DNA from: Oscillospiraceae bacterium
GTDB taxonomy: Bacteria; Bacillota; Clostridia; Oscillospirales; Oscillospiraceae
Reading direction: 5' to 3'
DNA length: 32,511 bases
Assembly: GCA_031261245.1 (NCBI GenBank)
Contig: JAISKU010000100.1
Coordinates: 1 to 32,511, forward strand
The notes under the pieces: model-generated
Database searches by the model: none
What the model was told of the DNA's origin: nothing
Seen by the model: the letters and a program-made list of their open reading frames with translations, nothing else
Shown: in pieces, positions 2,568 to 19,876 of the stretch
How the letters are laid out: each line of letters opens with the position of its first letter
Position numbering within the stretch: position 1 is the first letter of the stretch
Made by a program: the position numbers and the translations under genes

Positions 2568-2594
2568 ATCGGAACCTCCCGTGATTTTTTAATG

Positions 2595-2623
2595 AATATA
2601 TCATATACCCGGCAATTTCGCAA
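2595..2623 (-). promoter_or_regulatory. Candidate sigma-A-type promoter for hen1-pnkp
   Basis: Minus strand reads TTGCGA (2623..2618) - 17 nt - TATATT (2600..2595), just upstream of the hen1 SD/ATG. Confidence 0.4.
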
Positions 2624-2651
2624 CAAACCTCCGGTTTATCCCTCGTATCCG

Positions 2652-2680
2652 TTGCAATTTTGTCGAAAGCTTGGTATAAT
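2652..2680 (+). promoter_or_regulatory. Strong sigma-A-type promoter (extended -10) for the 2709-6843 operon
   Basis: TTGCAA (2652..2657) - 17 nt - TATAAT (2675..2680), with TG at 2672..2673 giving TGnTATAAT. It lies 28 nt upstream of ATG 2709 and inside the 5' extension of track ORF 1890..4430, which argues against that extension. Confidence 0.6.
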
Positions 2681-2708
2681 CGCGGAAAAACAAAGGTTGG
2701 TGACGCAT

Positions 2709-5973: not shown

Positions 5974-6843
5974 ATGATCATCAGCGCGTCGCGTCGAACG
6001 GATATTCCGGCGTTCTACTCCGAGTGGCTCGTGAACCGGCTGCGCGAGGGCTTTGTGCTCGTGCGCAATCCGGTGAATCCGTCGCAGATTCGGCGCGTCG
6101 AGCTCGCGCCGGAGTGCGTGGACGGCTTCGTGTTCTGGACGAAAAACGCCGCGCCGATGCTCCCGAAGCTCGACGCGGTTGCCGCGTTCCCGTACTATTT
6201 CCAGTACACCATCACCGCCTATGATTCGGACATCGAGCGCGGCCTGCCGTCGAAGCGCGACGTCGTGATTCCCGCGTTCCGGGAACTCGCAGCGCGCGTC
6301 GGAGCGGAGCGCGTCGTGTGGCGTTACGACCCGATTCTATTCACGCCGAGGTACGATTTCGACTACCACATCCGCGCGTTCACGCGGCTGTGCGGTTTGC
6401 TCGAGGGCAGCACGCGGCGGTGCGTCGTCAGCTTCGTGATTCCGTACAAGTCGATTGCGGGGAGCTTCCGTGCCGCCGGAATCGAGGTTCCGACGGGCGA
6501 CGCGCGGCTGCGGCTCGCTGAAAAACTGCTGCAAACAGCGGCGGAGCGCGGGATTGCGCTGTGCGCGTGCTGCGAGTCGCCGGAGTTGTACGCGCTCGGC
6601 GTCAGCCCGACGGCGTGTGTGGATTCGGCGCTGCTCGGCGAGATTGCGGGGCGGCCGCTCGAGGTCAAGCGCGACAAAAATCAGCGCGACGGCTGCAACT
6701 GCGCCGCGAGCGTCGATATCGGCGCGTACAACACGTGTCTGAACGGCTGCGCGTACTGCTACGCGAACCACGGCGCGCGCCGCGTCGCGTCGAACGCGGC
6801 GGCGCACGATGCGACGAGTCCGCTGATAGTGGGGAATGTTTAA
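5974..6843 (+). CDS. DUF1848 family protein (putative Fe-S cluster protein)
   Basis: 289 aa. The N-terminus MIISASRRTDIPAFYSEW is characteristic of DUF1848. C-terminal Cys cluster: CNCAASVDIGAYNTCLNGCAYCYAN. GAGGTG SD upstream. Confidence 0.75.
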   Translation: MIISASRRTDIPAFYSEWLVNRLREGFVLVRNPVNPSQIRRVELAPECVDGFVFWTKNAAPMLPKLDAVAAFPYYFQYTITAYDSDIERGLPSKRDVVIPAFRELAARVGAERVVWRYDPILFTPRYDFDYHIRAFTRLCGLLEGSTRRCVVSFVIPYKSIAGSFRAAGIEVPTGDARLRLAEKLLQTAAERGIALCACCESPELYALGVSPTACVDSALLGEIAGRPLEVKRDKNQRDGCNCAASVDIGAYNTCLNGCAYCYANHGARRVASNAAAHDATSPLIVGNV

Positions 6844-6860: not shown

Positions 6861-6900
6861 ATCAAGGCTTACCGTTTTTCGCGGTAAGCCTTGATAATTT
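6861..6900 (+). terminator. Rho-independent-type terminator ending the 2709-6843 operon
   Basis: 14-bp perfect stem ATCAAGGCTTACCG (6861..6874) / CGGTAAGCCTTGAT (6882..6895) with a 7-nt loop, followed by AATTT. It marks the left edge of the AT-richer island. Confidence 0.6.
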
Positions 6901-6927
6901 CTAAATTGTCATATTACGAGAATTGTA

Positions 6928-6956
6928 TTGACCCGCAAATCCCTTTGGTCTATAAT
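6928..6956 (+). promoter_or_regulatory. Sigma-A-type promoter of the accessory + type III effector operon
   Basis: TTGACC (6928..6933) - 17 nt - TATAAT (6951..6956), 29 nt upstream of GTG 6986, which is preceded by GGAGGT. Confidence 0.6.
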
Positions 6957-6985
6957 TAAAACCAATATTCTGTGGAGGTGCAGCA

Positions 6986-7840
6986 GTGACGACATATAAA
7001 ACGATATACAATGCGCAGGTGAGTTGCCCCCCTTCAAGCAGAAAAAATACATACGAAAAACTGAAAGACTTTGAATCGAATTTTAGTACAATGGCCGCAA
7101 ATCTCCAAATCAATGGTACTGTTGACTACGAGATCGGGTATCAGGAAGAAACGGAATATTTTGACACGCTGTTCGATGTGTCAAAGGTACTGCTAACATG
7201 CGGCTTGAGTAACGATATATTCAAGAGCAAGAATAGAGGCCCTATTTATTTCAGCCATTCTGTATTCCCGGACACAAAAAAATACTCTGACTTTCGCAAA
7301 GCAATGAGAGCGCTTGACGCCATCGGCTATGTCAGTTATAAGGGCCATCGCGGGAATCCCTCCAATGCTTACATTATAACGGGCTGCGACATAACAATTG
7401 CTGATGATGAAGTAAAATCGCGTTTTCTCTCAAAGGACGCATGGTACGAGGTGTACATAATGGGAGTGGTACGAACGATTATGGAAACATCTTTCAATGA
7501 GGTGCCGTATGAATTGGCGACAGGCGTCACAATCAGGTTAAATAACAATGACATCACCGACTGTGATGTTTTGCTTGCGGTTGGCAATTCTGTTTTTTAT
7601 ATTGAAACAAAAGTAAGTGCTTATAAGGGCAAAGAATATGAGTCTTACATGAATAAATACGCTAACCACATCGAACTATTCGGATTTTCCCCTGTAAACG
7701 CTTGCTTTGTATGTCTGAACAAAACCGATGAGAAGTTAGCCGAAATGAGAACCTACGCAAACGGACGATTTCATGTTCATGATAACCGCTCATTTCCCAT
7801 GTGGATTGAGAACCGCATTCGGGAAGTATTAAAAAAATAA
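6986..7840 (+). CDS. Card1/Can2-type (DUF1887-like) PD-(D/E)xK nuclease domain protein with a non-CARF, winged-helix-like N-terminal half
   Basis: 284 aa; GTG start 5 nt after GGAGGTG. The C-terminal half has KDAWYEVYIMGVV (the GxW[FY]Exy helix I associate with the Card1/Can nuclease domain). It also has the catalytic-type pattern DCDVLLAVGNSVFYIETK (D..D..(E)xK). The N-terminal segment FRKAMRALDAIGYVSYKGHRGNPSNAYIITG looks like a wHTH recognition helix plus wing. I see no Rossmann/CARF pattern. Confidence 0.55.
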   Translation: MTTYKTIYNAQVSCPPSSRKNTYEKLKDFESNFSTMAANLQINGTVDYEIGYQEETEYFDTLFDVSKVLLTCGLSNDIFKSKNRGPIYFSHSVFPDTKKYSDFRKAMRALDAIGYVSYKGHRGNPSNAYIITGCDITIADDEVKSRFLSKDAWYEVYIMGVVRTIMETSFNEVPYELATGVTIRLNNNDITDCDVLLAVGNSVFYIETKVSAYKGKEYESYMNKYANHIELFGFSPVNACFVCLNKTDEKLAEMRTYANGRFHVHDNRSFPMWIENRIREVLKK

Positions 7841-7915
7841 CCGCACCCGCTGCGAAAAACCGTAAACCGCACCTCAATAAATTAAGTAATGCAAAACAAT
7901 TAGGAGTGATATCTG

Positions 7916-8755
7916 ATGACAAGAAAGAAAAAATTCTTCGCCGCGATTAGCCTTATCGACAAAGAAGAGCGTGAAGCCATATCATATGCGTTCCATGAAT
8001 CCTGCGAGATTTCAGGCGGCTATGTTATGTCTGTCCACAATCCCGTTATGGCGTTCATTATGGACAAGGTGAAGCCCGATGAGGAGCTTGACCTGTACCT
8101 TATTCTGTGCCGGGGCGACTGCGCCAACGGAGCGTTATCCGGTTCTGCGGCGAGAAACGCGGACAACAAAATCAGCACCGCCGTCGCCAAACGCCTACAG
8201 GAAATTCTTGGCGCGGGAAACGGTCTGACTGTTGATTCCCCGGTAGTTTTTGACGGCGCCTCACAGGCTTCCGGCGACTGTGACTTAAATACCGTACGCG
8301 AGATGTTTCGCAAAAAGAACGGCGCGGACGCGGACTTCAGGTGTACCGTCCATCTCGTGGACGACAGCGACAGCGAGGGTAATACGCTCGGCAACAGCAG
8401 CAAGGCGTATATTCAGCTGCTTCGCAAGCTCATCAAGCTGATTGAAGACCACGACATTATCTATGTTGACACCACATATGGGTTTAAACCATTATCTGAA
8501 GTATGGAGAAATCTCTGCATATACGCTGTTCGCGCGAAAACCGGGGCGGAGGTCGGCGCGTTTTCATACGGCAGCCTATACGGCGTTACGAACGAGAACC
8601 CGACAATCTTCAACAACCGCGCCTTTTTGGTAATGGGCGATATAATGAGCAACGCCTACGACAACAAAACCACGGACACGATTATTAACGACTTGCTTGA
8701 GGATTTGCAGAACGACAACTGGGACGAGGATGATTTAGAGGACGAGGAGGTATAA
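7916..8755 (+). CDS. Stand-alone CARF-like (TM1812/Csx-type Rossmann) protein with a poly-acidic C-terminal tail
   Basis: 279 aa; AGGAG SD 9 nt upstream. Pattern: beta-1 KKFFAAISLI, then ELDLYLILC, then helix YIQLLRKLIKLIEDHD followed by IIYVDTTYGFKPLS. The last matches the CARF signature D[IV]T[HG]GF[RK]..P. Then AFSYGSL. Tail: NDLLEDLQNDNWDEDDLEDEEV. Confidence 0.55.
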   Translation: MTRKKKFFAAISLIDKEEREAISYAFHESCEISGGYVMSVHNPVMAFIMDKVKPDEELDLYLILCRGDCANGALSGSAARNADNKISTAVAKRLQEILGAGNGLTVDSPVVFDGASQASGDCDLNTVREMFRKKNGADADFRCTVHLVDDSDSEGNTLGNSSKAYIQLLRKLIKLIEDHDIIYVDTTYGFKPLSEVWRNLCIYAVRAKTGAEVGAFSYGSLYGVTNENPTIFNNRAFLVMGDIMSNAYDNKTTDTIINDLLEDLQNDNWDEDDLEDEEV

Positions 8756-8757
8756 TC

Positions 8758-9999
8758 GTGGGAGCAAGGGAGCAGTGGCTATCCGAACAGGATTGGGAAA
8801 CTGCACGGTCAAGAATAAATGAGGCGGCGAATGACGGAAAGTCTTCTGATGCTGTTCTGCCCTACTTTCTCAACGAAAACGGCGTACGGGTCGGAAGGCT
8901 TAAAGAATATTACGGCGTGACGCTTTGCGAAATCAAGACAATCAAAGGTGTTTTATTTTGCGAACCCGGGGACATGGTGTGTATCGTAAGCGATAAGCTG
9001 TCAAAATATAAAAAATACTTGAGTGACAAGGGCTGCGAAGCAAAGGAGTTTTTCGAGTATCTGTGCGGAGAATTTACGCCCCATCCGAAGTTCGCCATTA
9101 AGCGGGCCCACCTTGACATAAACAACGAGCTCACAGAAGTACAGGAGAAAGACTTTTCAAAAATACACAAATATCTGACGGAATTGGCGGGTACCGAAAA
9201 CACTGACGACCATAAGGAGCTTATTTCGGCGCTGCTGAATTCAGGGGACGCCGATGATGACCTACGCAAATTGGGAAAGCGGCTTGACGCGAAAAAAACG
9301 CTTACCGTCAAAAAGAAACTGCGCGAATATGAGTCCCTGCGGTTGTCGCCGTCATTGTCACTTGACAAAGAGCGCGGCGACGACATCACGTTGTACGATA
9401 CCTTGTCGAGTGATGACGAGTATGAAATAGAACAAGATGTTCAAAGCAATGACCATGTTTCGGCAAACCTAAACAATGATTTAAACAACCTGTTTGGCGC
9501 CAAGATTGAAAGGCGTGTTCTGGCGACAAAGTATCTAACGGAGAATATTATCAAGACCAGCCCAAATGTGTCAAACTATCGCAGAAAGTACGAACGCGAA
9601 CACGGCGGCAAATTGCCTGTTCTGAAATACTATGTCGTCAATTACAAAGGTGTCCGCAGCGCGCTGGAACAATGTTCAAAAAAAGAATTGTCAGAATATG
9701 CGCAAGTCGATTGTGTCAACCCAAAAAGCAAACGCGGCCTCTGCGCTGATTGTGACCCGCAATGCGAAACTTATTGCGAAGTGGATGCCAAAACAATAGC
9801 GACGGCATACGCAGTATCGGCCGGGAGATATATGGTTCAGGTCGCGTGTCATATATTCGCAAGCGGAAAAGTTCCGTCAAACAGGCAGTTGCAAGAGTTC
9901 GGCGATATTTCGGGATTATACAGCGTATCACCGCTTGACGATAGGATGATAAACAGTATGATTAAAAATCTCGCAAAAAAATATAAAATAAGGTGGTGA
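8758..9999 (+). CDS. Hypothetical Cys-rich 413-aa protein; possible HTH / sigma-70 region 3.2-4-like C-terminal half (weak)
   Basis: GTG start 2 nt after the preceding TAA, with GAGGAGG 8 nt upstream. Cys cluster: CVNPKSKRGLCADCDPQCETYC. The segment LSLDKERGDDITLYDTLSSDDEYE...LFGAKIERRVLATKYL resembles the sigma-70 SLD..TLxD linker plus region 4.1 (compare SigK in this window: VSLSDPIDTDREGNALTLIDLI). AKTIATAYAVSAGRYMVQVA resembles a region 4.2 HTH. I see no region 2. Confidence 0.35.
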   Translation: MGAREQWLSEQDWETARSRINEAANDGKSSDAVLPYFLNENGVRVGRLKEYYGVTLCEIKTIKGVLFCEPGDMVCIVSDKLSKYKKYLSDKGCEAKEFFEYLCGEFTPHPKFAIKRAHLDINNELTEVQEKDFSKIHKYLTELAGTENTDDHKELISALLNSGDADDDLRKLGKRLDAKKTLTVKKKLREYESLRLSPSLSLDKERGDDITLYDTLSSDDEYEIEQDVQSNDHVSANLNNDLNNLFGAKIERRVLATKYLTENIIKTSPNVSNYRRKYEREHGGKLPVLKYYVVNYKGVRSALEQCSKKELSEYAQVDCVNPKSKRGLCADCDPQCETYCEVDAKTIATAYAVSAGRYMVQVACHIFASGKVPSNRQLQEFGDISGLYSVSPLDDRMINSMIKNLAKKYKIRW

Positions 10000-10004
10000 G
10001 CGGA

Positions 10005-11429
10005 ATGTCAATATTCGCGGTATACGACACGACGGGTATCCAAGACTATGTGTTCGCGTCTGGGAAGTTCTCCGAGTGTAAAGGCGCGTCTAACCTTGTG
10101 CGATCAATTTTTGCGGACATTCTGCCAGGTGCCATGCCTCCCGGTAGCATCACCGATTGGAAGCCCCGCACGGACATACCGCTTGACCGCGCCGCGCCCG
10201 CCGAGCTCGTGTGCGCGGGCGGTGGCAACGCCTATGTGGTTTTCAAAGACGAGAACACTTTCCGGGACACAACGAAGCGGTTTCTCCGAGCCGTGCTTGA
10301 AAAGACTTGTGGGATGGGTATCGCGGTCGCGGCGGTTGAAACAAATCTTGCGAACTTTGCCGCCGATTATAAAGAGCTGCAGCGGCGCATATCGCTCACA
10401 AAGGGCAACGTCAACAGGACGCTCATAGCGGGAAGCCGGAACATCACGCAATCAACCGCGCAGACGAACGAGCCCGTCACGAGGGTCGTATTGCGCCACA
10501 ATAAATATGTAAGCCTGTCCGAGGGGCAGTATCTCAAAACAAAATATATTCCCAAGGATATTCCCAAGGGCGCAAGAGAGTTTGACGATCTGACGGATGC
10601 GGGCAACAACTTTATCGGCGTAATCCACGCGGACGGGAATAACATGAGCGACAAAATCAGGGCGTTTGTGGCGAGTGAAATTGACTGGAACAGTGCCGTG
10701 CCGAAGCTTCGCCGTATGTCAAAAAACATTTCGGCTTATTTCCAACTTGCCTATGAGAAAACCGTGAGCGGCTTTGATTTGCCGATAATCTCGCTCGTCA
10801 CGGACGGCGAGGACATGACATTTATAATACAAGGCAAATACGCCGTATCCTTCGCCGCGGAATATCTCAGAAATGTTGAACGCCTAAACAACGAAGCGGA
10901 TATTAAGCCGTTTGACGACGACGAAACAATAACCGCCTGCGCCGGCGTGGCGCTGTTCCACAGCCATTTTCCGTTCATTGAGGCGTACAAAATGGCGGAG
11001 GAACTGTGCTCAAGCGCGAAAAGCGCGGCGCGACGCGCGCCGGACACATCATACGTGGACTTCCATATCCACAGCACGGGTTTTGTGACAACCGTTAGCG
11101 AACATAGGGGTAACTATTATCCGAATGTCGGAAAAAACCTGTATTCTCGACCATTACGGATTGGCGGCGGTTTTGAGGATTTTGAACAACTGACGGCGTC
11201 GCTTTCGGGCGGCGATAAGTATCCGCGCACAAAACTGAAATCGCTGCGCTCCGCGCTGAATAATCACGCGGACGGCGATTTTACCGACGCGCGGGCGCTG
11301 ATCAAGTCGCTCGGTCTGTCGGACGAAATAAAACCCTCCAAAAGCGCCGAGGTTCACGAATACGCGCTGCTGAACGACGCGCTTGAATTTATGGATACCT
11401 ATGAACGTGTCGCCGGAGGTGTGGCATGA
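10005..11429 (+). CDS. cas10: Minimal Cas10-like subunit (two palm/cyclase-like domains, no HD domain, no Zn finger)
   Basis: ATG 10005 (GGTGGTGA SD); GTG 9993/9996 are alternatives. It opens with IFAVYDTTGIQDYVFASGKFSECKGASNLV, the GIQxFIF...GAS palm motif of Cas10. Then come ELVCAGGGNAYVVF (degenerate palm 1) and FIGVIHADGNNMS. SLVTDGEDMTFIIQG sits at the GGDD position. ITACAGVALFHSHFPFIEAYKMAEELCSSAK matches the SAGI...AK motif. YSRPL and a short helical C-terminus follow. Confidence 0.75.
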   Translation: MSIFAVYDTTGIQDYVFASGKFSECKGASNLVRSIFADILPGAMPPGSITDWKPRTDIPLDRAAPAELVCAGGGNAYVVFKDENTFRDTTKRFLRAVLEKTCGMGIAVAAVETNLANFAADYKELQRRISLTKGNVNRTLIAGSRNITQSTAQTNEPVTRVVLRHNKYVSLSEGQYLKTKYIPKDIPKGAREFDDLTDAGNNFIGVIHADGNNMSDKIRAFVASEIDWNSAVPKLRRMSKNISAYFQLAYEKTVSGFDLPIISLVTDGEDMTFIIQGKYAVSFAAEYLRNVERLNNEADIKPFDDDETITACAGVALFHSHFPFIEAYKMAEELCSSAKSAARRAPDTSYVDFHIHSTGFVTTVSEHRGNYYPNVGKNLYSRPLRIGGGFEDFEQLTASLSGGDKYPRTKLKSLRSALNNHADGDFTDARALIKSLGLSDEIKPSKSAEVHEYALLNDALEFMDTYERVAGGVA

Positions 11430-13489
11430 CGAATATAGAATTAGAACTATTGTCCGACACCCACGCGGGCGCGGGACTCGGCGCGTTCGGCGGTGTTGAC
11501 GCAGAAATATCGCTCGACAAATACGGTCTGCCCATTATCCCCGCGAAGCGCGTCAAGGGCCGTCTGAGCGAAGCCGGAGAGGAAATACTCTCGGTATTTC
11601 CGCAGTATTCGGACATTTTTCTTAGATTGTTCGGCGAAAAGGGCAGCGAAAAATCCGGCGAGCTGGAAATCCATACGGGAACGCTTTCAAAGCCCTATCC
11701 CGCCGAGGATTTGGTAAAGGAGATAAAGAGCGAGCGGTACACGCCGAGTCGGGTGACGGAGCTTTTTACATCACTCCGTACGAGCACCGCCGTGAGCGAG
11801 GATGACGGATTGATTCATCAGACGGACGAGAGCGCCCTGCGCGTAATCCGCGTTGCCGACAAGGGCTTAAAATTCCGGTTTGATGTTGAATGCCCTGATG
11901 ACGGAACGGAGTTTTTGGGGAAATGCTGTTTAGCGTTGCGGGACATAGGCGCCAATCGCACAAGAGGCCTCGGCGAGGTGAGGTGCAGGCTCGTCGTCTC
12001 CGACGAGACTGCGGAGGCGTCAATCGGCAAATTTGCGCCGCAGTCGGTCACGGAGCATTTGAAATGCGCGACATATTTCTTAGAGCTTACAGAACCGGTC
12101 GCGATTTCCGATGACTATATCCCCGGCTCGTTGATTTTAGGCAGCTTCTCAAGCGCATGGGTTAGGAAACATCCCGGCGTACCGCCGCATACAAGCCCCG
12201 AATTTCGCAGGCTGTTCCTTGACGGCGGCGTAAGCTTTCTCTCGGCGTATCCTCTCAGCGATAAGGGCAAGGTGCTCTATCCCGCCGAGCGCGGTATTCG
12301 CTCAAAAAAAGACGGCAACGAGATTAAAGACGCGAGCTTCGGCGACATTCCGGATGAATACACCAAAACCCTCACCGGGTTCGGATACAAAAGCGGCAGT
12401 AACTACCATCAGCTCGGCGGGGTATCGAGAGCCGTCGCCGCGCACCACGCCAGACCCTCGGACAAGTCGATCGGACACGCGGTGGAAAATGCCGGCGCGG
12501 AAAGCGGCGCGTTTTATAAATACGACGCGCTGGCGCAGGGCTTAAAATTTGTCGGCGGTATTGTCGGTTCTGACTCGGATTTAGAGATTATACATTCGCT
12601 CGCGGACGGAACCGTGCGGCTTGGGAAGTCGCGGAGCGCGCAATACGGAAACGTAAAATTTGACTGGACTGACTATGCGTTTTTAGAAAACGAAAAGCTC
12701 ACCGTAAAAAGCGATGAGAGTTTTAAGATTATTTTGCGTTCTCCTTTAATACTTACGGACGATGACGGTACCGTCTCACCCGACCCGAAACTGCTGCTTG
12801 ACGCTTTGAATCTCGGCGGTTGCTCTCTCGTGAAGGTGTTTTGCTCGGCGGCAGTCGCGGCAGGCTATAACTCAAAGTGGCTCCTGCCGCGCACGCAGGA
12901 GTTCGCGCTTGCGGGCGGAAGTGTGATTGTCGCAAAAAATGAAAGCGGAAAAGATATTGCGCTTGATTCTGTCGAAAACTTTGTTGGCTTACGCAGGGGC
13001 GAGGGCTTCGGGCATGTTTTTATCGAAAAGCTTACAGACTCAAGGCTGACTCACAAGCAGCCTGCAAAACAGGACACCGTAAGCATTGGCTCCGCTAAAA
13101 CCCGGCATCTCAAAGAATTAATACTGAAACAGCAAGTATTATCACGCGTACAGTACGCTGTCGAGCAGAGCAAAGCAACGAATGTTACCAACTCACAGCT
13201 CGGCAGACTTCGCGGGTACCTGTCCGTGTGTGACAGCTTTGACAGTTTGGCCGAAAAGCTGAACAGCGTGGCTTGGAAGCAGACAAAGGACCGCGAAAAT
13301 ATCCAAAAATTCATCTTCGACCAAAAGGCCGAGGACGGCGACATTTTGAGTTTACTCAAACAAAAAGCCGAAAGCGTTGTCGAATCCGATATCTGGCGAC
13401 TGCTTGACGAAAGAGCGCGGTACTATTGGTTCAAGACATATCTGATTATGCTGATACGCAGACGCAAAGGAGAGAAGGAGGGACAGTAA
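11426..13489 (+). CDS. Fused RAMP protein, Cas7-Cas5-Cas11-like (type III-D variant style large fusion subunit)
   Basis: 687 aa; ATGA overlap with cas10. The N-terminal RAMP has GLPIIPAKRVKGRLSEA and the G-rich loop GANRTRGLGEV. A second RAMP-like unit has YIPGSLILGSFSS ... LGKSRSAQYGNV, followed by VGLRRGEGFGHV. The C-terminal helical part with NVTNSQLGRLRGYLS resembles the Cas11 (Csm2/Cmr5) SQLR motif. Confidence 0.7.
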   Translation: MTNIELELLSDTHAGAGLGAFGGVDAEISLDKYGLPIIPAKRVKGRLSEAGEEILSVFPQYSDIFLRLFGEKGSEKSGELEIHTGTLSKPYPAEDLVKEIKSERYTPSRVTELFTSLRTSTAVSEDDGLIHQTDESALRVIRVADKGLKFRFDVECPDDGTEFLGKCCLALRDIGANRTRGLGEVRCRLVVSDETAEASIGKFAPQSVTEHLKCATYFLELTEPVAISDDYIPGSLILGSFSSAWVRKHPGVPPHTSPEFRRLFLDGGVSFLSAYPLSDKGKVLYPAERGIRSKKDGNEIKDASFGDIPDEYTKTLTGFGYKSGSNYHQLGGVSRAVAAHHARPSDKSIGHAVENAGAESGAFYKYDALAQGLKFVGGIVGSDSDLEIIHSLADGTVRLGKSRSAQYGNVKFDWTDYAFLENEKLTVKSDESFKIILRSPLILTDDDGTVSPDPKLLLDALNLGGCSLVKVFCSAAVAAGYNSKWLLPRTQEFALAGGSVIVAKNESGKDIALDSVENFVGLRRGEGFGHVFIEKLTDSRLTHKQPAKQDTVSIGSAKTRHLKELILKQQVLSRVQYAVEQSKATNVTNSQLGRLRGYLSVCDSFDSLAEKLNSVAWKQTKDRENIQKFIFDQKAEDGDILSLLKQKAESVVESDIWRLLDERARYYWFKTYLIMLIRRRKGEKEGQ

Positions 13490-14793
13490 TGAGCGAAAAA
13501 CTCACGGTTAAGCGTGTTTATGCCGTTTGTAAAATGCGGCTTGAAGCACCGGCGCTCATTGGCACGTCCGAAGATATTGAGCGCGACCGCGATGTCGCGC
13601 TTAACAAGGACGGCAACCCGTTTATCCCCGGCACGACATTAGCGGGTATTTTGAGAAGCTCCCTGACCGTCAGCGATGCGGACACGCTGTTCGGCAAACG
13701 TATAAGAGCTAAGGGCGATGAAATCAAACAAAGTCCGCTATGGGTTTACGATGCAGAGATCTTTAACGGGCAGATTATCACTATCGATAATGTGTCGCTT
13801 GATGAAAATCAGAGAAACGCGAAAATACCTGAAAATCCGGAACTCGACCACATGAATAAATCTGCTAAAAACGAAGCGAAATTTGATATGCAGGCCGTGG
13901 ACAAAGGTGCGGAGTTCGACCTCCGTTTGTGTCTGATTGTTCGCGATGGCGACACAAAAACAGAGATTTTGCTCGCTCGTCTGCTTGAGACGCTGAACAA
14001 CCTCTACGTCGGCGGAAAAACCTCTCGCGGATTCGGTAAGTTGTCTTGCTTCGGTGTTTACAAACACGCTTTTGACTTCACGGGCGCGGATAAACAATCA
14101 CAGATGGACGCGTGGCTCGCATTTGAAGATTGGAAAACGCTTGAAACGGATGAGTACAGGCAAGACCTCGTGTTTATACCGCCGGTAGGTGTTTCGACGC
14201 TTTCCGCCAAATTGACGCTGAACGGCGCCGTGCTTGTCCGCGACATATATTCCGTTGAGGATGACGAGGACTTTGCGCACACTAAAAGCGCGGGATCTTC
14301 CGTGATATACGGCACATCGTGGGCAGGCGCGCTACGCGGTGGTTTGGCGCGGTTGTTCAAGTCAAACGGATATGAGAGCGCCGAAGCTTTCCTTGACAGC
14401 GTGTTCGGCAGACAGTATGGCGATAAGGCCGTAACCGAACCGTCGAAAATCCGCGTTGACGCGTCATATATCAGCGGCGGCGAACGGCTGATATACTCGC
14501 GCAATAAGATAGACCGGTTCACCGGCGGCACTGCAAATACTGCGCTGTTTACTAACCGTCCGCATTTCGGCGGTAAGACAATACTCACTGTACAATTCAA
14601 AACAGCCGATGTCGCTATAAGAGAGCTGTTGCTGCTTGCGCTTGACGCCCTGAACAAGGGACTAATTACGCTCGGCGGCGAAACCTCAATCGGGCGCGGA
14701 GTGTTCACCGTTGGTCGCGTATCCCTTGATGGTCAGAAAGCTCAATTCGGCGCTAAACCGACCGCGTTAAAGGAGGCGCTATCGCATGTTTGA
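13489..14793 (+). CDS. Fused double Cas7 (Csm3-like x2) RAMP protein
   Basis: ATG 13489 overlaps the preceding stop (TAATG), with AAGGAGAGAAGGAGG upstream. Unit 1 has DRDVALNKDGNPFIPGTTLAGILRS ... GGKTSRGFGKL. Unit 2 has SVIYGTSWAGALRGGL ... LGGETSIGRGVF. Confidence 0.75.
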   Translation: MSEKLTVKRVYAVCKMRLEAPALIGTSEDIERDRDVALNKDGNPFIPGTTLAGILRSSLTVSDADTLFGKRIRAKGDEIKQSPLWVYDAEIFNGQIITIDNVSLDENQRNAKIPENPELDHMNKSAKNEAKFDMQAVDKGAEFDLRLCLIVRDGDTKTEILLARLLETLNNLYVGGKTSRGFGKLSCFGVYKHAFDFTGADKQSQMDAWLAFEDWKTLETDEYRQDLVFIPPVGVSTLSAKLTLNGAVLVRDIYSVEDDEDFAHTKSAGSSVIYGTSWAGALRGGLARLFKSNGYESAEAFLDSVFGRQYGDKAVTEPSKIRVDASYISGGERLIYSRNKIDRFTGGTANTALFTNRPHFGGKTILTVQFKTADVAIRELLLLALDALNKGLITLGGETSIGRGVFTVGRVSLDGQKAQFGAKPTALKEALSHV

Positions 14794-15331
14794 CGAAAAA
14801 ATCGGCAACAAATTCGGAAACAATAAGGCGTGGGCCGTCTGTACTATGTACCACGGTGTGATCATCGGCAAATGGGACGGTAAACGCCTGAATTTTCATA
14901 AAGACGCGGAGTTCTCAGAGGATTGCGTCACGGAAATGCGCGTATTTAACAACGACGCGGAGCTGCGCTTTGTTAAGACAGACGGCGGTATAAAAGAGCG
15001 CTATATCACGGATGGCGCAAATTCAGACGTATACGACAAAAAGTATCTCGTCTACGGTACGGATTACACGCCGGACAGCGGCGGAATATTCCTAACCGAA
15101 GAACGCGGCGGCAAGCTGTGGTTTCCCGCCGTACCGGAGTTTGCGGACGGAAAGGTAAACCTCTGGCTCGGTATCCGCAACTATTTGAAATACAACCCCG
15201 TGTCAATTGGTGATGACGATACAAAACGTCAGACAGGCAAACCCGCGCTTGAGGTCACTGATTATCGTTACTTTGGATTTTACGAGGGGTTATCGTCTGA
15301 CGGCACAGCTACGACGGAGGTTTTGCTATGA
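14786..15331 (+). CDS. Small type III-D-associated protein in the Csx19 position; identity based on position only
   Basis: 181 aa; overlaps the upstream gene by 8 nt (ATGTTTGA) and the downstream gene by 4 nt (ATGA). Its size and its place between the double-Cas7 and the insertion-Cas7 match where csx19 sits in described III-D variant loci. I recognise no motif. Confidence 0.4.
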   Translation: MFDEKIGNKFGNNKAWAVCTMYHGVIIGKWDGKRLNFHKDAEFSEDCVTEMRVFNNDAELRFVKTDGGIKERYITDGANSDVYDKKYLVYGTDYTPDSGGIFLTEERGGKLWFPAVPEFADGKVNLWLGIRNYLKYNPVSIGDDDTKRQTGKPALEVTDYRYFGFYEGLSSDGTATTEVLL

Positions 15332-17295
15332 GCTTTGTGAATCCGTATAATTTTGTGACGCTTGAGGATTCCTGTGAGAAGAAAAATCGCGACATTCCGA
15401 TAAACGCCGAACGCTCCGGCGAAACCCTCTATACGGGTGAGTTCGTCTGCGAACTGACTACGCTCACGCCGCTGTTTATCCCGAATACAACTAATGATAA
15501 CACCTTCCCGGATACGGCAAAACAAAATTTGGACAAATACAATTCGGCGCTTGAACCTGACGGCAAGAAAGAGACGGAAACAAGCAAATCCTACGACTTT
15601 TTCAGCTACTCCGATATGTCAATAAAAGGCGCGACGCCAACGCAATCCCCGGTAATTCCCGGTTCATCGATTCGCGGCGTGATCCGCAGCGTGTTTGAAA
15701 CGGTCACAAACAGCTGTATGTCCACAAGCGACGGCAAAGAAACTCCGCTGTATAGACGTACACCTGCCGCAAAGAGCAAGTTCGGCGTCATTAAGAATGG
15801 TAAGTTATACTACTCCGGAACAGAGAAGCTTCTCGTGAAGGTGGATAATCCAAACTATTCTGCGCATCCTTTTGGGGCCGGTCTGCCGCTCTTACGCGGG
15901 TTGGCAAACGGGCAGGAAATATGGGTCACGCCGACTCAGGACAGATTTATTAAGAAAATCAAAAATAGAGACGGCACTTTCAAGATGATTTCTCTTAATC
16001 GCGGTGTTGCAAGTAAAAACCCGGTGGGTGAAGGGGTGTGCGGATACTACCTAAAAGGCGAACCCTTTGGAACGAAAAAACACTTTGATGCCGTTATGGT
16101 TCCAAACCTTACTTCAAAACCCTATGTCCTCACAGACCGCGACAAGGAGCGGCTCAAAAAGCTGATAGAGCTATATTCGCACGACAAAGATGGCGTTAAT
16201 CAGACCCTCGGACACAATGAGTACAAGGACTTCCTTGATGCGGAGGTTAAACCCGTTTACTATTCGGAGGTCGGCGGTAAGTATTATATTTCTCCGGCAA
16301 GTATCACAAAAGAGGTATTTGACCGTACAATCGCGGGCATACTCCAACATCAGGGCGGTTTCAACGCTTGCTCGAGAGCGGACAATCTGTGCGAGGCGTG
16401 CCATCTGTTCGGAATGATTGAAAAGGGCGAAATGGCGAAGACGCGCTCGTCGCGCGTTTCGTTCCGCGATGCGATTGCGCGCGACGCCGGAGACTATATG
16501 GGTGACGTTACATCTATGGCAATTCTCGGCTCGCCAAAAATTACCGCAACCGAGTTCTATATGCAACAACCCCGAAAGAACAATGATGTCTTCAACTACG
16601 ATTACGAGACAATCAATAAGCAATCGTCATTGCTCCGCGACGACGCGGTGCGTTTGCGCGGACGCAAATATTATTGGCACCACGGAACCGAACCCAAATC
16701 CGCAGGTCTTGATGACAAGCCAAAACAATATCAAATCACACGTCCCGTGTTAAAAGGCAAAACCTTTGTGTTTACCGTCGCCTTTGAGCGCCTGACGCTT
16801 GACGAGCTGCGCAAGCTGCGGTACAGCCTTGAGCTCGACGAGACTCACGCCCACAAAATGGGTCACGGCAAACCGATAGGCTACGGGAGTGCGCGGGTAA
16901 AGATTGACCGTGATAAAAGCCGAGTATTTACACTTAGCCCGGATTTTGTGATTGTCTGTGCATCGTTGCCGGACGCGGCATATGAGTTCACCTATGACAA
17001 CGCCGACTTCCTCGCGCTGACAGACATATCCGCGCCGAAAAAGAACGTTTCATATCCGAGAGGAACATATAGAGGCAAACCCACTGTATACGACTGGTTC
17101 GTGTTAAACCGCGAGGCAAACGGCGGCACCTCTACAAACCCGAGGTTTGCATATGTTCTGCCGAGGGCGAGCGCGCAGGATGTGACTTTACCGGAGATAA
17201 CAAAGCGTGACAGAGAAATCACACAGGGCAGAGGGTCAAACCGCGCCGTAGTGTGGGATAGCTTTAACAAAAGCGACGGTATGCCCACTCAGTGA
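15328..17295 (+). CDS. Cas7-family RAMP with large insertion (Cas7-insertion type)
   Basis: 655 aa. N-terminal FVNPYNFVTL. SPVIPGSSIRGVIRSVFE is the RAMP GSS[IL][KR]G motif. CSRADNLCEACHLFG is the Csm3-type CxxC..LFG motif. G-rich loop HKMGHGKPIGYGSARV. About 200 aa are inserted between the first two motifs. Confidence 0.75.
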   Translation: MSFVNPYNFVTLEDSCEKKNRDIPINAERSGETLYTGEFVCELTTLTPLFIPNTTNDNTFPDTAKQNLDKYNSALEPDGKKETETSKSYDFFSYSDMSIKGATPTQSPVIPGSSIRGVIRSVFETVTNSCMSTSDGKETPLYRRTPAAKSKFGVIKNGKLYYSGTEKLLVKVDNPNYSAHPFGAGLPLLRGLANGQEIWVTPTQDRFIKKIKNRDGTFKMISLNRGVASKNPVGEGVCGYYLKGEPFGTKKHFDAVMVPNLTSKPYVLTDRDKERLKKLIELYSHDKDGVNQTLGHNEYKDFLDAEVKPVYYSEVGGKYYISPASITKEVFDRTIAGILQHQGGFNACSRADNLCEACHLFGMIEKGEMAKTRSSRVSFRDAIARDAGDYMGDVTSMAILGSPKITATEFYMQQPRKNNDVFNYDYETINKQSSLLRDDAVRLRGRKYYWHHGTEPKSAGLDDKPKQYQITRPVLKGKTFVFTVAFERLTLDELRKLRYSLELDETHAHKMGHGKPIGYGSARVKIDRDKSRVFTLSPDFVIVCASLPDAAYEFTYDNADFLALTDISAPKKNVSYPRGTYRGKPTVYDWFVLNREANGGTSTNPRFAYVLPRASAQDVTLPEITKRDREITQGRGSNRAVVWDSFNKSDGMPTQ

Positions 17296-17328
17296 CACGA
17301 CAGCTTTGGCGCTGATCGTCTGAATCGT

Positions 17329-17368
17329 AAAACTCCTTGAAAATTTTCAAGGAGTTTTGTTTTGTTTT
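17329..17368 (+). terminator. Rho-independent terminator ending the effector operon
   Basis: Perfect palindrome AAAACTCCTTGAAAA/TTTTCAAGGAGTTTT (17329..17358) followed by GTTTTGTTTT. Confidence 0.75.
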
Positions 17369-17445
17369 ATCTGCGAAAAATCCAAAACCTCCCCACAATA
17401 AGATAATGTAGACACAAAAAATCATAATAAAAGGAGAACAACAGC

Positions 17446-17811
17446 ATGAGCTACAACACTTACGACAAGTACGGCAACAAAAAAGGCTACAGCACAACCT
17501 CCACCGGTATCTTTGGCGGCAATACGACGAGTCACTACAACAACTCCGGTAAGCGCACGAGCACAACGACCTACGACAAGGGCATCTTCGGCGGCACAAC
17601 AGCAAACCACTACGGCAGAGACGGCAAGAAATCCGGCTACAGCAAGAGGGAGACAGGCATGTTCGGCGGCAACTACACACAGCACTACGACAAGTACGGC
17701 AGCAAAACCGGCACTTCGCGACGCGAATCAGGTTTTTTCGGAGACAAGATCGTCCACTATGACAAGTATGGGAACAAGAGGGGCTCAAGCAAGAAGAGCG
17801 GGTGGTTCTAA
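17446..17811 (+). CDS. Gly/Tyr/Lys/Thr-rich protein built from 25-aa tandem repeats; function unknown
   Basis: 121 aa; AAAGGAG SD 9 nt upstream. Repeat register is exact: G[IMF]FGG at residues 21, 46, 71 and 96, and HYDKYG.K.G.S recurs every 25 residues. No signal peptide or TM segment. Confidence 0.65.
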   Translation: MSYNTYDKYGNKKGYSTTSTGIFGGNTTSHYNNSGKRTSTTTYDKGIFGGTTANHYGRDGKKSGYSKRETGMFGGNYTQHYDKYGSKTGTSRRESGFFGDKIVHYDKYGNKRGSSKKSGWF

Positions 17812-17917
17812 GCCACCCGCCCCGAGCGAAAGGGGGTGAGGGAACAAAAAGTATATGCTCGCGTTTCGACTATTGGCGTAATTCAACATTTTATAATTTT
17901 AAGGAGAAAACAACACC

Positions 17918-18331: not shown

Positions 18332-18340
18332 CCTTGCGGC

Positions 18341-18374
18341 AGGAGCGCACCGTCATAAAAAGCGGTGCGCTCCT
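18341..18374 (+). terminator. 12-bp GC-rich hairpin after the 137-aa gene (terminator-like, no clear T tract)
   Basis: AGGAGCGCACCG (18341..18352) / CGGTGCGCTCCT (18363..18374) with a 10-nt loop. Confidence 0.45.
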
Positions 18375-18427
18375 CGCTTGTCTTACCGTTGTCGCGCCAA
18401 TACCGCCAAGTGCGTTTGGCAAGCAGC

Positions 18428-18488: not shown

Positions 18489-18543
18489 AAATGAGATAGG
18501 GCAGTGGTCTGAAAAAGTTGCACAGGTATCAAAAACGGGGGGT

Positions 18544-19138
18544 GTTTACAATTCAAGAATCTCGGCGCGAGATTGAAACCATAATAAATCCTTTCGTTTT
18601 TTACGACGTTGGGGCAGGAAATACCTTAACCTCGGTGCGAGATTGAAACCGATATTCATGTTGTTAATATAGATACAAAACGTAGGAAATACCTTACTCT
18701 CGGCGCGAGATTGAAACGTCATACTCATAGTGGTGTTGCTCCTTTCTTTTTTGTAGGAAATACCTTAATCTCGGTGCGAGATTGAAACTTTTCAGCGCCC
18801 TTTGGTTATGTGGATACGCTTAGGTCGGAAGAACCTTTATCTCGGTGCGAGATTGAAACTGCCATGTCTGGTACCTCCATCTTTTTAATAGCGTAGGAAA
18901 TACCTTAATCTCGGTGCGAGATTGAAACCCCGGAGAAGTGACGTGACCAGTCACCGCGGAGTGTAGGAAATACCTTAATCTCGGTGCGAGATTGAAACGC
19001 AACCTTCCTTTCAAATCGTTGTCATCATAAAAGTAGGAAATACCTTAATCTCGGTGCGAGATTGAAACGATTTTCAGGGCACTAGCCCGCCTTTCTTTTG
19101 GCGTAGGAAATACCTTAATCTCGGTGCGAGATTGGAGA
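18544..19138 (+). CRISPR. CRISPR array, 9 repeats / 8 spacers (32-35 nt); consensus repeat GTAGGAAATACCTTAATCTCGGTGCGAGATTGAAAC (36 nt)
   Basis: Repeats are at 18544, 18614, 18682, 18753, 18824, 18893, 18963, 19033 and 19103, each 36 nt. R4, R6, R7 and R8 are identical. R2, R3 and R5 carry 2, 2 and 4 substitutions. R1 keeps only the 3' 22 nt. R9 ends ATTGGAGA instead of ATTGAAAC. Orientation is plus because the repeat ends with the canonical 8-nt crRNA tag ATTGAAAC, all cas genes are co-directional, and the promoters lie upstream. Internal hairpin: AATCTCG-GTG-CGAGATT. Confidence 0.95.
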
Positions 19139-19146
19139 AACACATA

Positions 19147-19863
19147 ATGAAATGTGTGGATTTTGTTCTGCAAAAGCGAGATTTATCGGGGCTTTACTCA
19201 TCATTGGCGGTAAAGCTCCAGGCTTTTCTCATGTCAAAAACAGAGGGCGCCGCGGCGGAGTATCTGCACAAGCGCAATCTGCGCCCGTACAGCTTGTTCA
19301 CTGTGGAGCAGCGGGAAAATATCATTTTTCGGCTGAACATCCTGACCGATGAGGCTCTGCCCTTGTACAATGCCGCGCTTAATACGCGTCGCTACGCAGT
19401 TACCGGTATCAATGGCGGCATAGACGTATTGGACACTGTGACTTATGACGATATGCCGCTTTCGGATTTGCGCGGCAGCGCTCCGAAGCAGTTTAAGCTG
19501 TTGCTTGCCTCCCCCGCCACGTATAAGCACGAAAATACTTACTCGAACATATTCGCGCTCGCGCCTCTGTTTTTTAGCGTTGCGGACAAGCTGCGGTTGT
19601 TTTTTGGAGTTGATATAAGCAACGCGGAGATAACTGCGCTATGTGAAACGCTGAAATTTGTACAGTACAACTTCAGAAGTGATACATACGCGGTCAAGCG
19701 CGGCAACGTAATACCGGCGTTTTCCGGCGAGTTTGCGCTTGCTCCGCGCGGCACGGACGCGCAGACAGAAAAGCTTATGCTTCTGTTGCGGTTCGCCGAA
19801 TACTCCGGCGTCGGCGCGAAGACCGCGCTCGGAATGGGCGGTGTTTTACTCGATGAAAAATAG
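19147..19863 (+). CDS. cas6: Cas6 crRNA-processing endoribonuclease
   Basis: 238 aa from ATG 19147; the track start 19132 is a TTG inside the last repeat. The C-terminal G-rich loop FAEYSGVGAKTALGMGGV is the Cas6 signature. GGAGA of the degenerate last repeat sits 8 nt upstream of the ATG. Confidence 0.8.
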   Translation: MKCVDFVLQKRDLSGLYSSLAVKLQAFLMSKTEGAAAEYLHKRNLRPYSLFTVEQRENIIFRLNILTDEALPLYNAALNTRRYAVTGINGGIDVLDTVTYDDMPLSDLRGSAPKQFKLLLASPATYKHENTYSNIFALAPLFFSVADKLRLFFGVDISNAEITALCETLKFVQYNFRSDTYAVKRGNVIPAFSGEFALAPRGTDAQTEKLMLLLRFAEYSGVGAKTALGMGGVLLDEK

Positions 19864-19876
19864 CGGACAACAAGTG

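Follow-up and report, generated by a model that had tools for sequence, protein, structure and literature searches.

What does a CARF protein do in a type III CRISPR-Cas locus when it carries no effector of its own? Type III signalling is currently described in terms of a sensor and an effector fused in one protein, plus separate ring nucleases, and the window considered here (the whole stretch of DNA that was analysed, 32,511 nucleotides from an Oscillospiraceae bacterium) encodes a CARF protein that stands alone:

7916..8755, + strand: stand-alone CARF protein of 279 aa, a divergent member of the CARF2 / TM1812 (TIGR02221) family

The ATG start of this ORF lies 8 nt downstream of an AGGAG ribosome-binding site, and its TAA stop occupies 8753-8755. 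In a profile HMM search the protein matches the PADLOC model CARF2--CARF (PDLC01821) with an E-value of 5.6e-19 and three further stand-alone CARF2 models with E-values of 2e-10 to 1e-6; the PADLOC Csx1/Csm6 models match residues 159-260 (E 2e-4 to 4e-4), while a Pfam scan gave no match. We take PADLOC's CARF2 to be the Csm6 clade (Crf1), by elimination from Supplementary Table 2 of PMC12669027. All 58 relatives collected by HMM match the stand-alone CARF2 family (best E 1.6e-86), and 54 of them match TIGR02221 at E < 1e-3; the 279-aa protein itself scores 17.9 bits against this NCBIfam equivalog (E 0.0024, residues 156-252 only), below the curated cut-off of 76.25 bits, and is therefore a divergent offshoot of the TM1812 family rather than a model-level member.

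The AlphaFold model built on the 58-sequence alignment (pLDDT 89.1, pTM 0.88) supersedes an earlier, poor model from three sequences (pLDDT 62.8), whose Foldseek matches were already CARF, if weak. It predicts a Rossmann-like alpha/beta fold of six strands (residues 5-10, 57-64, 142-149, 181-185, 212-220 and 230-233) with helices between them and a hairpin of strands 5 and 6. The top 13 Foldseek matches in the PDB are all CARF (probability 0.87-1.00), the best being Csx1-Crn2 (E 4.6e-5), ToCsm6 and the Crn1-type proteins Sis0455 and Sso2081; a PDB sequence search with the protein alone returned chance matches only (eS12, E 0.01), and the 58-sequence profile found nothing meaningful there, leaving no solved relative detectable by sequence. 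A preliminary description of this DNA had proposed the CARF identity and had named the lack of any CARF or Rossmann-fold match in profile or structure searches as the result that would speak against it; both searches were run and both found CARF, and the profile match, together with structural matches to the CARF domains of Csx1-Crn2, Csm6 and Crn1, confirms on sequence and predicted structure that the protein carries a real CARF domain.

The best structural matches, the Csm6/Csx1 CARF domains (ToCsm6 6o6z/6o6x; Marinitoga Csx1-Crn2 8y75/8y6z; E 4.6e-5 to 8e-4, probability 1.00), superpose on our model in their cores and not in their insertions, with a TM-score of only 0.38-0.47. ToCsm6 and the Marinitoga Csx1-Crn2 are cA4 sensors, and the ToCsm6 CARF domain also cleaves cA4. 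Whereas these proteins carry a fused HEPN RNase (plus Crn2 in Marinitoga), the 279-aa protein has, C-terminal to the CARF core, two helices and a disordered 13-residue tail and nothing else, and no Rx4-6H motif occurs in it; the preliminary description was thus right that no effector domain is fused, and to its account must be added an insertion of about 58 residues (65-122). One relative, P0044, is a tandem duplication of the CARF domain, which lends indirect support to a homodimer as the putative unit. The protein is very acidic (pI 4.55, net charge -19).

The stand-alone TM1812 CARFs (PADLOC PDLC01820-01823) resemble our protein in having the same domain and no effector, and share with it the motifs MKKF..., an invariant Tyr, an FPI/NPV helix start, DITYGxKP and YG. 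The sampled members also occupy the same kind of locus, with Cas10d, a Cas7/Cas5 fusion and Csx19, and an uncharacterised gene after the CARF. Compared with ordinary members, to which it is 17-29% identical, the 279-aa protein is about 75 residues longer, owing to the insertion of about 58 aa and to its extended acidic tail; we know of no characterised member of the family. Only five sequences of its subfamily were found in the public collections searched. Plasmid and phage records held no relatives of the CARF protein, viral structures held no structural relatives, and word-index searches with alignments recovered almost nothing new.

Where a ligand might bind, and what distinguishes this subfamily, can be placed on the gene as follows:

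8108..8281, + strand: subfamily-specific insertion of about 58 residues (65-122, with a long helix at 77-98), from alignments and model secondary structure
8468..8491, + strand: predicted CARF pocket motif, DTTYGFKP at residues 185-192 in the loop that follows strand 4, from conservation and the AlphaFold model
8714..8752, + strand: disordered acidic tail DNWDEDDLEDEEV, residues 267-279, from low pLDDT, 9 of 13 residues acidic, kept in four orthologues
8744..8750, + strand: Shine-Dalgarno sequence GAGGAGG for the downstream gene, read from the sequence

The segment IIYVDTTYGFKPLS (residues 181-194) comprises strand 4 of the model (181-185), the motif D185-T-T187-Y-G189-F-K191-P and the beginning of the next helix (191-207). 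The motif satisfies D-x-T-x-G-x-K/R after strand 4, and each of T187, G189 and K191 is found in at least 90% of the 58 relatives, whose consensus is DITYGTKP. The pattern D[IV]T[HG]GF[RK]..P by which the preliminary description had recognised a pocket does pick out the family's conserved motif, although the fit is loose (T for I/V and Y for H/G); the AFSYGSL it placed after the motif is indeed there, at residues 215-221, and includes Y218 and G219, which are at least 90% conserved, while Y24 is invariant across the 58 relatives. In place of the loop after strand 1 there is a family-specific element of about 30 residues, in which Tyr24 is invariant and Ser29-Cys30 conserved. All subfamily members have Ser12 at the end of strand 1, a column occupied by Pro in the wider family, which has Thr at columns 9-10. 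The insertion, bordered by the conserved Cys65 and Cys122, follows strand 2 and precedes the next helix; ordinary family members of about 205 aa lack it.

The acidic C-terminus reported in the preliminary description, NDLLEDLQNDNWDEDDLEDEEV (22 residues, 12 acidic and none basic), is real and conserved, but not all of it is tail: residues 253-266 are still helical in the AlphaFold model, and the disordered part is limited to 267-279, where the mean pLDDT falls to about 52 and nine of the 13 residues are acidic. At least nine acidic residues among the last 13 are expected with P = 1.5e-5 in shuffles of the protein's own composition, and the acidic tail, with W269 inside it, is retained in four orthologues only 47-52% identical. 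GAGGAGG overlaps the tail's last codons (E-E-V), 7 nt before the GTG at 8758; the idea that the acidity is a by-product of the next gene's ribosome-binding site was rejected, as this accounts for the last two or three codons only, and the tail is still present in L001 and L002, where 77 and 122 nt separate the CARF from the next gene. Other family members, P0044, P0051 and P0006, have short, moderately acidic C-termini and no nuclease. A role as a DNA mimic, suggested earlier for the tail, has no direct support.

The island around the gene is low in GC and amounts to a complete type III-Dv CRISPR-Cas locus, with an HD-less cas10, a cas7-cas5(-cas11) fusion, cas7-2x, csx19, a cas7 with an insertion, cas6 and a CRISPR array:

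9993..11429, + strand: short, HD-less Cas10d of 478 aa (PADLOC Cas10d E 5.3e-94; Pfam Cas10-Cmr2_palm2)
11426..13489, + strand: Cas7-Cas5(Csx10) fusion in the Cas7-Cas5-Cas11 position of III-Dv (PADLOC Cas5_IIId E 6.6e-114; N-terminal Csm3/Cas7 match; Csx10)
13426..14793, + strand: double Cas7, Cas7-2x (PADLOC Cas7_IIId E 4.5e-86; two RAMP stretches)
14786..15331, + strand: Csx19 (TIGR03984 E 3.3e-22; PADLOC Csx19)
15328..17295, + strand: Cas7 with an insertion, a TIGR03986 RAMP (TIGR03986 E 5.1e-82; Cas7_IIId E 1e-129)
18541..19138, + strand: CRISPR array of nine repeats (about 36 nt each, ending ATTGAAAC) separated by spacers of about 34 nt
19132..19863, + strand: Cas6 (profile matches)

Scanning all ORFs of the island against Pfam, NCBIfam and PADLOC revealed no other CARF, no SAVED and no known effector, and the 279-aa CARF is, as far as these profiles reach, the only recognisable second-messenger sensor in the island. 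The gene order is that of the Synechocystis III-Dv locus, which makes cOA and activates Csx1 (PMC11026444), and few III-D systems have an HD domain, for which reason signalling is regarded as their chief output (PMC11229360). The palm-2 motif of Cas10d is DGED, where GGDD is usual, and HADGNNM gives the first metal-binding Asp. Since DGED is kept in four orthologues, and since the single substitutions DGDD and GGED each occur in Cas10s from loci with known effectors (PMC11229360), the cyclase is probably active.

Two further genes adjoin the CARF gene, one on each side:

6986..7840, + strand: 284-aa nuclease, Can2/Card1-like PD-(D/E)xK (PADLOC, PDB profile match, invariant residues)
8758..9999, + strand: 413-aa partner with no recognised fold, the conserved downstream neighbour of the CARF gene

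The preliminary description had linked the CARF protein to both, and this link gains support from conserved gene order. In the nuclease, the PADLOC model CARF4--CARF_PDDEXK aligns over profile positions 232-333 of 364, its nuclease part, and nowhere else (E 3.4e-4), the best PDB match of the nuclease profile is the nuclease domain of Can2 (7bdv, E 0.057, motifs aligned), and a Pfam NERD match is weak; the catalytic residues E155, D192/D194 and E207-x-K209 are invariant in four orthologues. The N-terminal domain of about 140 aa is winged-helix-like by eye and is not a CARF; a hidden CARF was considered and rejected, since a domain of about 100 aa, as in L002, leaves too little room for one and none of the CARF models matches it. 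The nuclease lies upstream of the CARF gene in all four tail-bearing loci and is absent upstream of P0004, P0005, P0006, P0007, P0009 and P0044, all of which are without a long tail; because the four loci form one clade, the co-occurrence of tail and nuclease is a single evolutionary event and not four. Can2 and Card1 are cA4-activated proteins in which a CARF is fused to a PD-(D/E)xK nuclease. The same two modules are present here as a nuclease gene and a neighbouring CARF gene, with the differences that they form two polypeptides, nuclease then CARF, and that the nuclease has a different N-terminal domain (about 100-140 aa). Simple gene fission of a Can2/Card1 protein was rejected, the CARF here being of clade CARF2 and not CARF4.

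Downstream, a same-strand ORF of at least 290 aa follows the CARF gene in 13 of 13 loci with readable downstream DNA, starting -11 to +122 nt from the CARF stop; these ORFs span about 290-460 aa, and an HD-less Cas10d is present in all eight loci long enough to show one. Homologues of the 413-aa protein occupy the downstream position in seven loci (L001, L002, L003, L005, L012, L013 and L015) whose CARFs are only about 25% identical. A jackhmmer search on 12 partners had added L012, L013 and L015 to this family and not L007, L010, L014 or L016, and comparison of the family with the partners of L007 and L010 by hhalign and BLAST gave nothing. A single family comprising all downstream partners was rejected for want of detectable homology to the 413-aa protein in those four loci; because the partners of the more distant members show no such detectable homology, one conserved partner holds for the nearer clade only.

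The 413-aa protein itself gave no match in Pfam, NCBIfam, PHROGs, PADLOC or PDB sequences; its C-terminal half contains a Cys cluster, with conserved columns at residues 332, 336 and 351. We rejected the candidate that it is the HEPN half of a split Csm6/Csx1, there being no conserved Rx4-6H motif and no conserved catalytic set; a sigma/ArpU-like regulator is unsupported, with a weak match in one of seven members and nothing recurrent. The family as a whole shows no conserved catalytic constellation, a point against the trans-acting reading set out below.

The preliminary description had offered three candidate roles, a trans-acting sensor, a ring nuclease or cOA sponge and an inhibitor released on ligand binding, and sequence analysis did not separate them. 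Our best explanation, to which we assign a probability of roughly 45%, is that the 279-aa protein serves as a ligand receptor and acts in trans on separately encoded partners. It would be a dimeric CARF of the Csm6/Csx1-like CARF2 clade with no output domain. Target RNA would activate the HD-less Cas10d, and the nucleotide messenger that it then makes would most likely be a cyclic oligoadenylate; as CARF dimers have two-fold symmetry, cA4 and cA6 are the favoured candidates. The messenger would bind a predicted pocket to which the DTTYGFKP loop, Tyr24 (invariant in the family) and Tyr218-Gly219 contribute, and the resulting conformational change would be relayed in trans. The general partner, here the 413-aa protein, would come from the gene directly downstream, which is often translationally coupled to the CARF gene; in the tail-bearing clade the upstream CARF-less Can2-like PD-(D/E)xK nuclease is a likely second partner, for which, or for the other partner, the clade-specific acidic tail may be a flexible element for docking or auto-inhibition. 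Like many Csm6-clade CARF domains, the protein may also cleave its ligand slowly in the pocket and so limit its own signal. That the arrangement is a split signalling module, in which the CARF dimer controls by contact a partner family of about 330-460 aa (and the nuclease in this clade) and the tail can be released, is a tentative proposal. The literature searched describes no case in which an effector-less CARF activates a separate protein, and none is known to us, which counts against the trans-acting receptor, as do the acidic C-termini that occur without a nuclease, the single origin of the tail and nuclease pairing, and the many characterised stand-alone CARFs that are ring nucleases.

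The 279-aa protein may instead be a dedicated ring nuclease or cOA sponge that resets Cas10 signalling, with the real sensor or effector unrecognised in the 413-aa protein or in the N-terminal domain of the nuclease, the main rival reading and, in our judgement, less likely. In its favour, the characterised effector-less CARFs known to us are all ring nucleases (Crn1/Sso2081, Sis0455, Sis0811). These Crn1 types are effector-less or nearly so, lie beside type III loci as our protein does and are among its Foldseek matches (ranks 11-13 and 24; E 0.01-0.3); they differ in belonging to another CARF clade (CARF7/Crf7), and the strand 1 loop with their catalytic Ser is remodelled here. We know of no conserved coupled partner gene for Crn1 proteins, and the tight, often overlapping pairing of our CARF with its downstream gene suits a stoichiometric complex better than a free enzyme. 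In the closest fused relatives (the Csm6 clade, ToCsm6) the CARF pocket is itself the site of ligand cleavage, and TtCsm6 and Crn1 have a catalytic Ser/Thr where the subfamily has its Ser12, the invariance of which also speaks for a ring nuclease; against it, the strand 1-helix 1 loop that bears this residue in the known enzymes is here the family-specific element of about 30 residues. Most loci whose cyclase is active contain a ring nuclease, and ring nucleases accompany Can1/2-type nucleases in 66% of loci (PMC12409355); in PMC12669027, the Crf1/Csm6 row of Supplementary Table 2 reads 'sensor, effector, ring nuclease', and Sis0455 is a CARF with a C-terminal extension (PMC9638899), which we counted on the same side. 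The Crn1 model, however, is not matched by our protein and is matched by one of the 58 relatives (E 7e-4); NCBIfam and PADLOC gave no match to Crn1-5 (including Crn3/Csx3), Csx15, Csx16 or Csx20, and the loci would be left without a recognisable sensor, so that a new sensor fold has to be postulated.

It is improbable, in our estimate, that the pair is a split transcription-factor module, in which the CARF would regulate a DNA-binding 413-aa partner in the manner of Csa3 or CalpL-CalpT-CalpS and the tail would mask a basic surface. The strong acidity of the CARF protein fits such a module, as do a basic, HTH-looking segment of the 413-aa protein at about 166-200 (LGKRLDAKKTLTVKKKLREY; net charge +7 over 25 residues) and a weak match of that protein to the ArpU sigma-like regulator family (E 0.059); the segment was read from the sequence by eye, however, the ArpU match is confined to that one member of seven, and neither a recurrent sigma/HTH family (Pfam, NCBIfam and PHROGs, all members) nor a PDB sequence match was found. 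CalpL-CalpT-CalpS (SAVED-Lon protease, anti-sigma and sigma) is a precedent for a type III signal relayed via separate proteins (PMC12751052, PMC12669027); its sensor is a SAVED fused to an enzyme, and here scans of Pfam, NCBIfam and PHROGs showed neither a protease nor a sigma or anti-sigma signature. The unusual DGED of palm-2 also led us to consider that the pocket may sense a messenger that is not cOA, such as a conjugate of the SAM-AMP type; this idea is compatible with any of the proposed roles, and we give it only a small chance. Type III-D2 complexes make SAM-AMP and SAM-AMP2 with a GDE-type site, D347/E348 (PMC13294483), and DGED is not among the motif variants given for loci with known effectors (PMC11229360). 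On the other side, every characterised CARF domain senses cOA, the III-Dv architecture of this type makes cOA in Synechocystis (PMC11026444), and SAM-AMP systems use CorA and dedicated degrading enzymes (PMC12669027), none of which is present in the island.

By the count of Hoikkala et al., 133 loci have a Cas10 that is HD-less and cyclase-positive and are without a known effector (PMC11229360), and the loci found here may belong to that group. What is new is a small subfamily with a conserved downstream pairing alongside HD-less Cas10d, and with a CARF-less, Can2-like nuclease at its tail-bearing members. Should the CARF prove to be a ring nuclease, an unrecognised sensor has to lie in the partner or in the nuclease; if sensor and effector are indeed split, the 413-aa protein would represent a new effector or adaptor family and the locus a new regulatory logic for type III CRISPR, so that either outcome would be informative.

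The CARF gene occupies positions 7916-8755 of the window on the + strand, with a ribosome-binding site (AGGAG) 8 nt 5' of the ATG and a TAA stop at 8753-8755, and encodes 279 residues. The peptides quoted in the preliminary description, which had proposed a stand-alone CARF-like protein with a poly-acidic tail, are all found in this product: IIYVDTTYGFKPLS is residues 181-194, AFSYGSL is residues 215-221, and NDLLEDLQNDNWDEDDLEDEEV is the C-terminus. A Pfam profile search gives no match to the protein, and NCBIfam gives a sub-threshold match to TIGR02221 (the CRISPR-associated TM1812 family; score 17.9 bits, cut-off 76.25); PADLOC, whose library includes models of stand-alone CARF proteins, matches it to 'CARF2--CARF' (E 5.6e-19) and to three sister models, with several Csx1/Csm6 CARF+HEPN models matching residues 159-260. 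When 1.84 billion representative proteins were searched exhaustively with an HMM, 63 relatives were returned at E < 1e-3, mostly of 200-220 aa; 58 were aligned, every one of which matches 'CARF2--CARF' (best E 1.6e-86), and 54 of the 58 match TIGR02221.

No solved structure of the family is detectable by sequence, and to our knowledge no member has been characterised. AlphaFold, supplied with the 58-sequence alignment, gave a confident model (pLDDT 89.1, pTM 0.88) for which the best 13 matches in the PDB are all CARF domains; the matches include Marinitoga Csx1-Crn2 (E 4.6e-5), T. onnurineus Csm6 and the ring nuclease Sis0455, with Sso2081 at rank 24. The predicted topology has the expected alternation of strands and helices and a hairpin of strands 5 and 6, and the motif DTTYGFKP is located in the loop following strand 4. 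T187, G189, K191, Y218 and G219 are at least 90% conserved across the family, and Y24 is invariant. Together, the profile matches, family search, confident model, PDB matches, topology and motif establish the protein as a stand-alone CARF domain belonging to a divergent branch of the TM1812/'CARF2' family. Two features set it apart from the ordinary members: about 58 inserted residues (65-122) and an extended tail; in the model, helices 235-246 and 253-266 follow the CARF core and precede the disordered acidic tail. C65, C122 and C201 are conserved in the subfamily, and C30 more widely. In one relative (P0044, 433 aa; L016 7075-8376), which ends in a short acidic stretch, the CARF is duplicated in tandem; such a pseudo-dimer is consistent with the protein working as a dimer.

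The subfamily is rare: an index of 5.8 billion proteins, the set of 1.84 billion representatives, the metagenome contigs and 185,579 species genomes yielded only five of its sequences, namely the protein from the window (a termite-gut metagenome), P0002 (locus L001), P0003 (L002, identical to L006; a Gracilibacteraceae MAG), the L003 protein and P0004 (L004). No relatives were found among the plasmid and phage records or the viral predicted structures searched.

Nine of the final 13 residues are acidic and none is basic, a C-terminal acidity with P = 1.5e-5 in shuffles of the protein's own composition. Since four orthologues with an overall identity of just 47-52% retain the tail, including a Trp inside it, the tail is a selected feature rather than a chance run. 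The Shine-Dalgarno sequence of the downstream gene (GAGGAGG, 8744-8750) sits within the last codons of the tail; as an explanation of the tail it accounts for the last two or three codons only, and the acidic tail is still present in L001 and L002, where 77 and 122 nt, respectively, separate the CARF gene from the next.

The CARF gene lies inside a low-GC island (about 6,900-19,900; 41-55% GC versus 60-65% in the flanks) that is a complete type III-D CRISPR-Cas locus:

Features of the island (window coordinates)
6986-7840, 284-aa nuclease
7916-8755, + strand, CARF protein
8758-9999, 413-aa protein with no assigned family
9993-11429, HD-less Cas10d
11426-13489, Cas7-Cas5/Csx10 fusion
13426-14793, double Cas7
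14786-15331, Csx19
15328-17295, Cas7 with insertion
18541-19138, CRISPR array of nine repeats, ending in ATTGAAAC
19132-19863, Cas6

The gene order is that of the Synechocystis III-Dv system, whose complex was shown to produce cyclic oligoadenylate (cOA) upon target binding and to activate Csx1 (PMC11026444). The Cas10d palm-2 motif is DGED in place of the usual GGDD, and is kept in all four orthologues. DGED is absent from the published motif variants of loci with known effectors; because DGDD and GGED each occur in Cas10s of effector-bearing loci (PMC11229360), the cyclase is likely to be active. Given that III-D2 complexes produce SAM-AMP (PMC13294483), a product other than cOA is possible. 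The island genes include no second CARF and no SAVED, CorA or known effector.

The island (6900-19900) is without cas1/cas2 adaptation genes. The same cassette in L001 adjoins relaxase, MobC and AAA_25 genes, so it appears to be carried by mobile elements; in the window, the island is not flanked by direct repeats. Its left edge has a perfect 14-nt inverted repeat with a 7-nt loop (6861-6895), probably a terminator, just past the stop of a DUF1848 gene (5974-6843; DRT-associated 'RTasDUF1848' in PADLOC). This gene and its neighbour encoding a DUF2779 protein with a Cas4-like nuclease region (4441-5946) may be defence genes in high-GC host DNA. Farther left is a Hen1 RNA-repair methyltransferase (1203-2567, - strand, E 5e-97); that strand showed no intact gene for a Pnkp partner. 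A + strand ORF overlapping the Hen1 gene (1890-4430; 846 aa, or 609 aa if the start follows Hen1) has no Pfam or PDB match. Between the last RAMP gene and the array, a 121-aa ORF (17446-17811) of five ~25-aa repeats (YDKYGxKxG...GIFGG) corresponds to 75-nt direct repeats at 17506-17712, has no family match and may not be a real gene; a 137-aa ORF just 5' of the array (17918-18331), with a signal-peptide-like N-terminus, matches no family except a weak signal-peptide model.

A consistent association is evident from the neighbourhoods of the CARF genes. All four tail-bearing loci share one gene order: nuclease, CARF, 413-aa homologue, Cas10d. Ten further family members of decreasing similarity were examined (P0004, P0005, P0006, P0007, P0009, P0010, P0015, P0044, P0056 and P0065), nine with readable downstream DNA, the P0004 contig stopping 51 nt past the CARF stop. 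With the four tail-bearing loci these make 13, and in every one a same-strand unannotated ORF of about 290-460 aa lies directly 3' of the CARF gene; its start falls anywhere from 11 nt before the CARF stop to 122 nt past it, and overlap is frequent. At this position L005, L012, L013 and L015 encode a homologue of the 413-aa protein, even though the CARFs are just ~25% identical; homology is undetectable in L007, L010, L014 and L016. A short Cas10d is present again in every locus with a long enough contig except L010 (6.6 kb), in which no Cas10 gene was called, and RAMP fusions are also seen in L007, L014 and L016. In L016, P0044 is followed by an unannotated 424-aa gene and Cas10d; L007, the locus of a canonical family member, has an accessory set different from that of the window, with MJ1673-like and MJ1674-like genes (PF27247, PF27248) and Cas6 between the CARF gene pair and Cas10d (9743-12845).

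Searches of Pfam, NCBIfam, PHROGs, PADLOC and PDB sequences gave no match for the 413-aa family, which lacks a HEPN motif and a conserved catalytic set. A Cys cluster (CxxC-x5-7-C-x3-C-x3-C, around residues 332-352) is present in the closest four members, and a metal or redox feature shared with the neighbouring CARF subfamily is possible.

Members of the 413-aa family
Window, 8758-9999
L001, 6869-8209
L002, 3028-4284
L003, 2116-3510
L005, 1018-1890
L012, 1119-2447
L013, 1428-2783

The C-terminal half of the 284-aa protein matches just the nuclease portion of 'CARF4--CARF_PDDEXK' models. Its profile has the Can2 nuclease domain as best match among PDB sequences (E 0.057), with GW(Y/F)E and D...ExK motifs aligned; E155, D192/D194, E207 and K209 are invariant. 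The N-terminal 100-140 residues are too short for a CARF, match no CARF model, and by eye look like a winged helix. Judged from these alignments, the protein is a putative Can2-type nuclease that lacks the usual sensor, and its gene adjoins that of a sensor lacking an effector. Upstream of the CARF gene, the nuclease occurs in just the four loci with the long acidic tail; none lies upstream of P0004, the closest tail-less relative, or of P0005, P0006, P0007, P0009 or P0044. This co-occurrence is suggestive, and counts as one evolutionary event because the four loci form one clade.

The best-supported reading, to which we give a probability of about 45%, is that CARF is the messenger receptor of the locus, acting in trans on separate partners. 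The Cas10d product would bind CARF, which would signal in turn to the protein encoded by the coupled downstream gene and, in the tail-bearing clade, to the CARF-less nuclease as well, the acidic tail serving as a flexible docking or auto-inhibitory element; CARF may additionally cleave its own ligand slowly, like Csm6-clade CARF domains. Its main rival, a plain ring nuclease or sponge, draws on the fact that every characterised effector-less CARF we know of is of that kind. Ring nucleases are also common companions of Can-type nucleases (PMC12409355); nevertheless, this role would leave no recognisable sensor in any of these loci, and we consider it the less likely of the two. Minor alternatives are that CARF belongs to a split transcription-factor module or that its ligand is not cOA.

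The CARF domain and the broad TM1812/'CARF2' family are already in databases. New here are the subfamily bearing the insertion and tail, a Can2-like nuclease without a CARF beside a CARF gene, the absence of another sensor from these loci and, as the main new result, the rule that pairs CARF with an unannotated downstream gene in Cas10d (III-Dv-type) loci.
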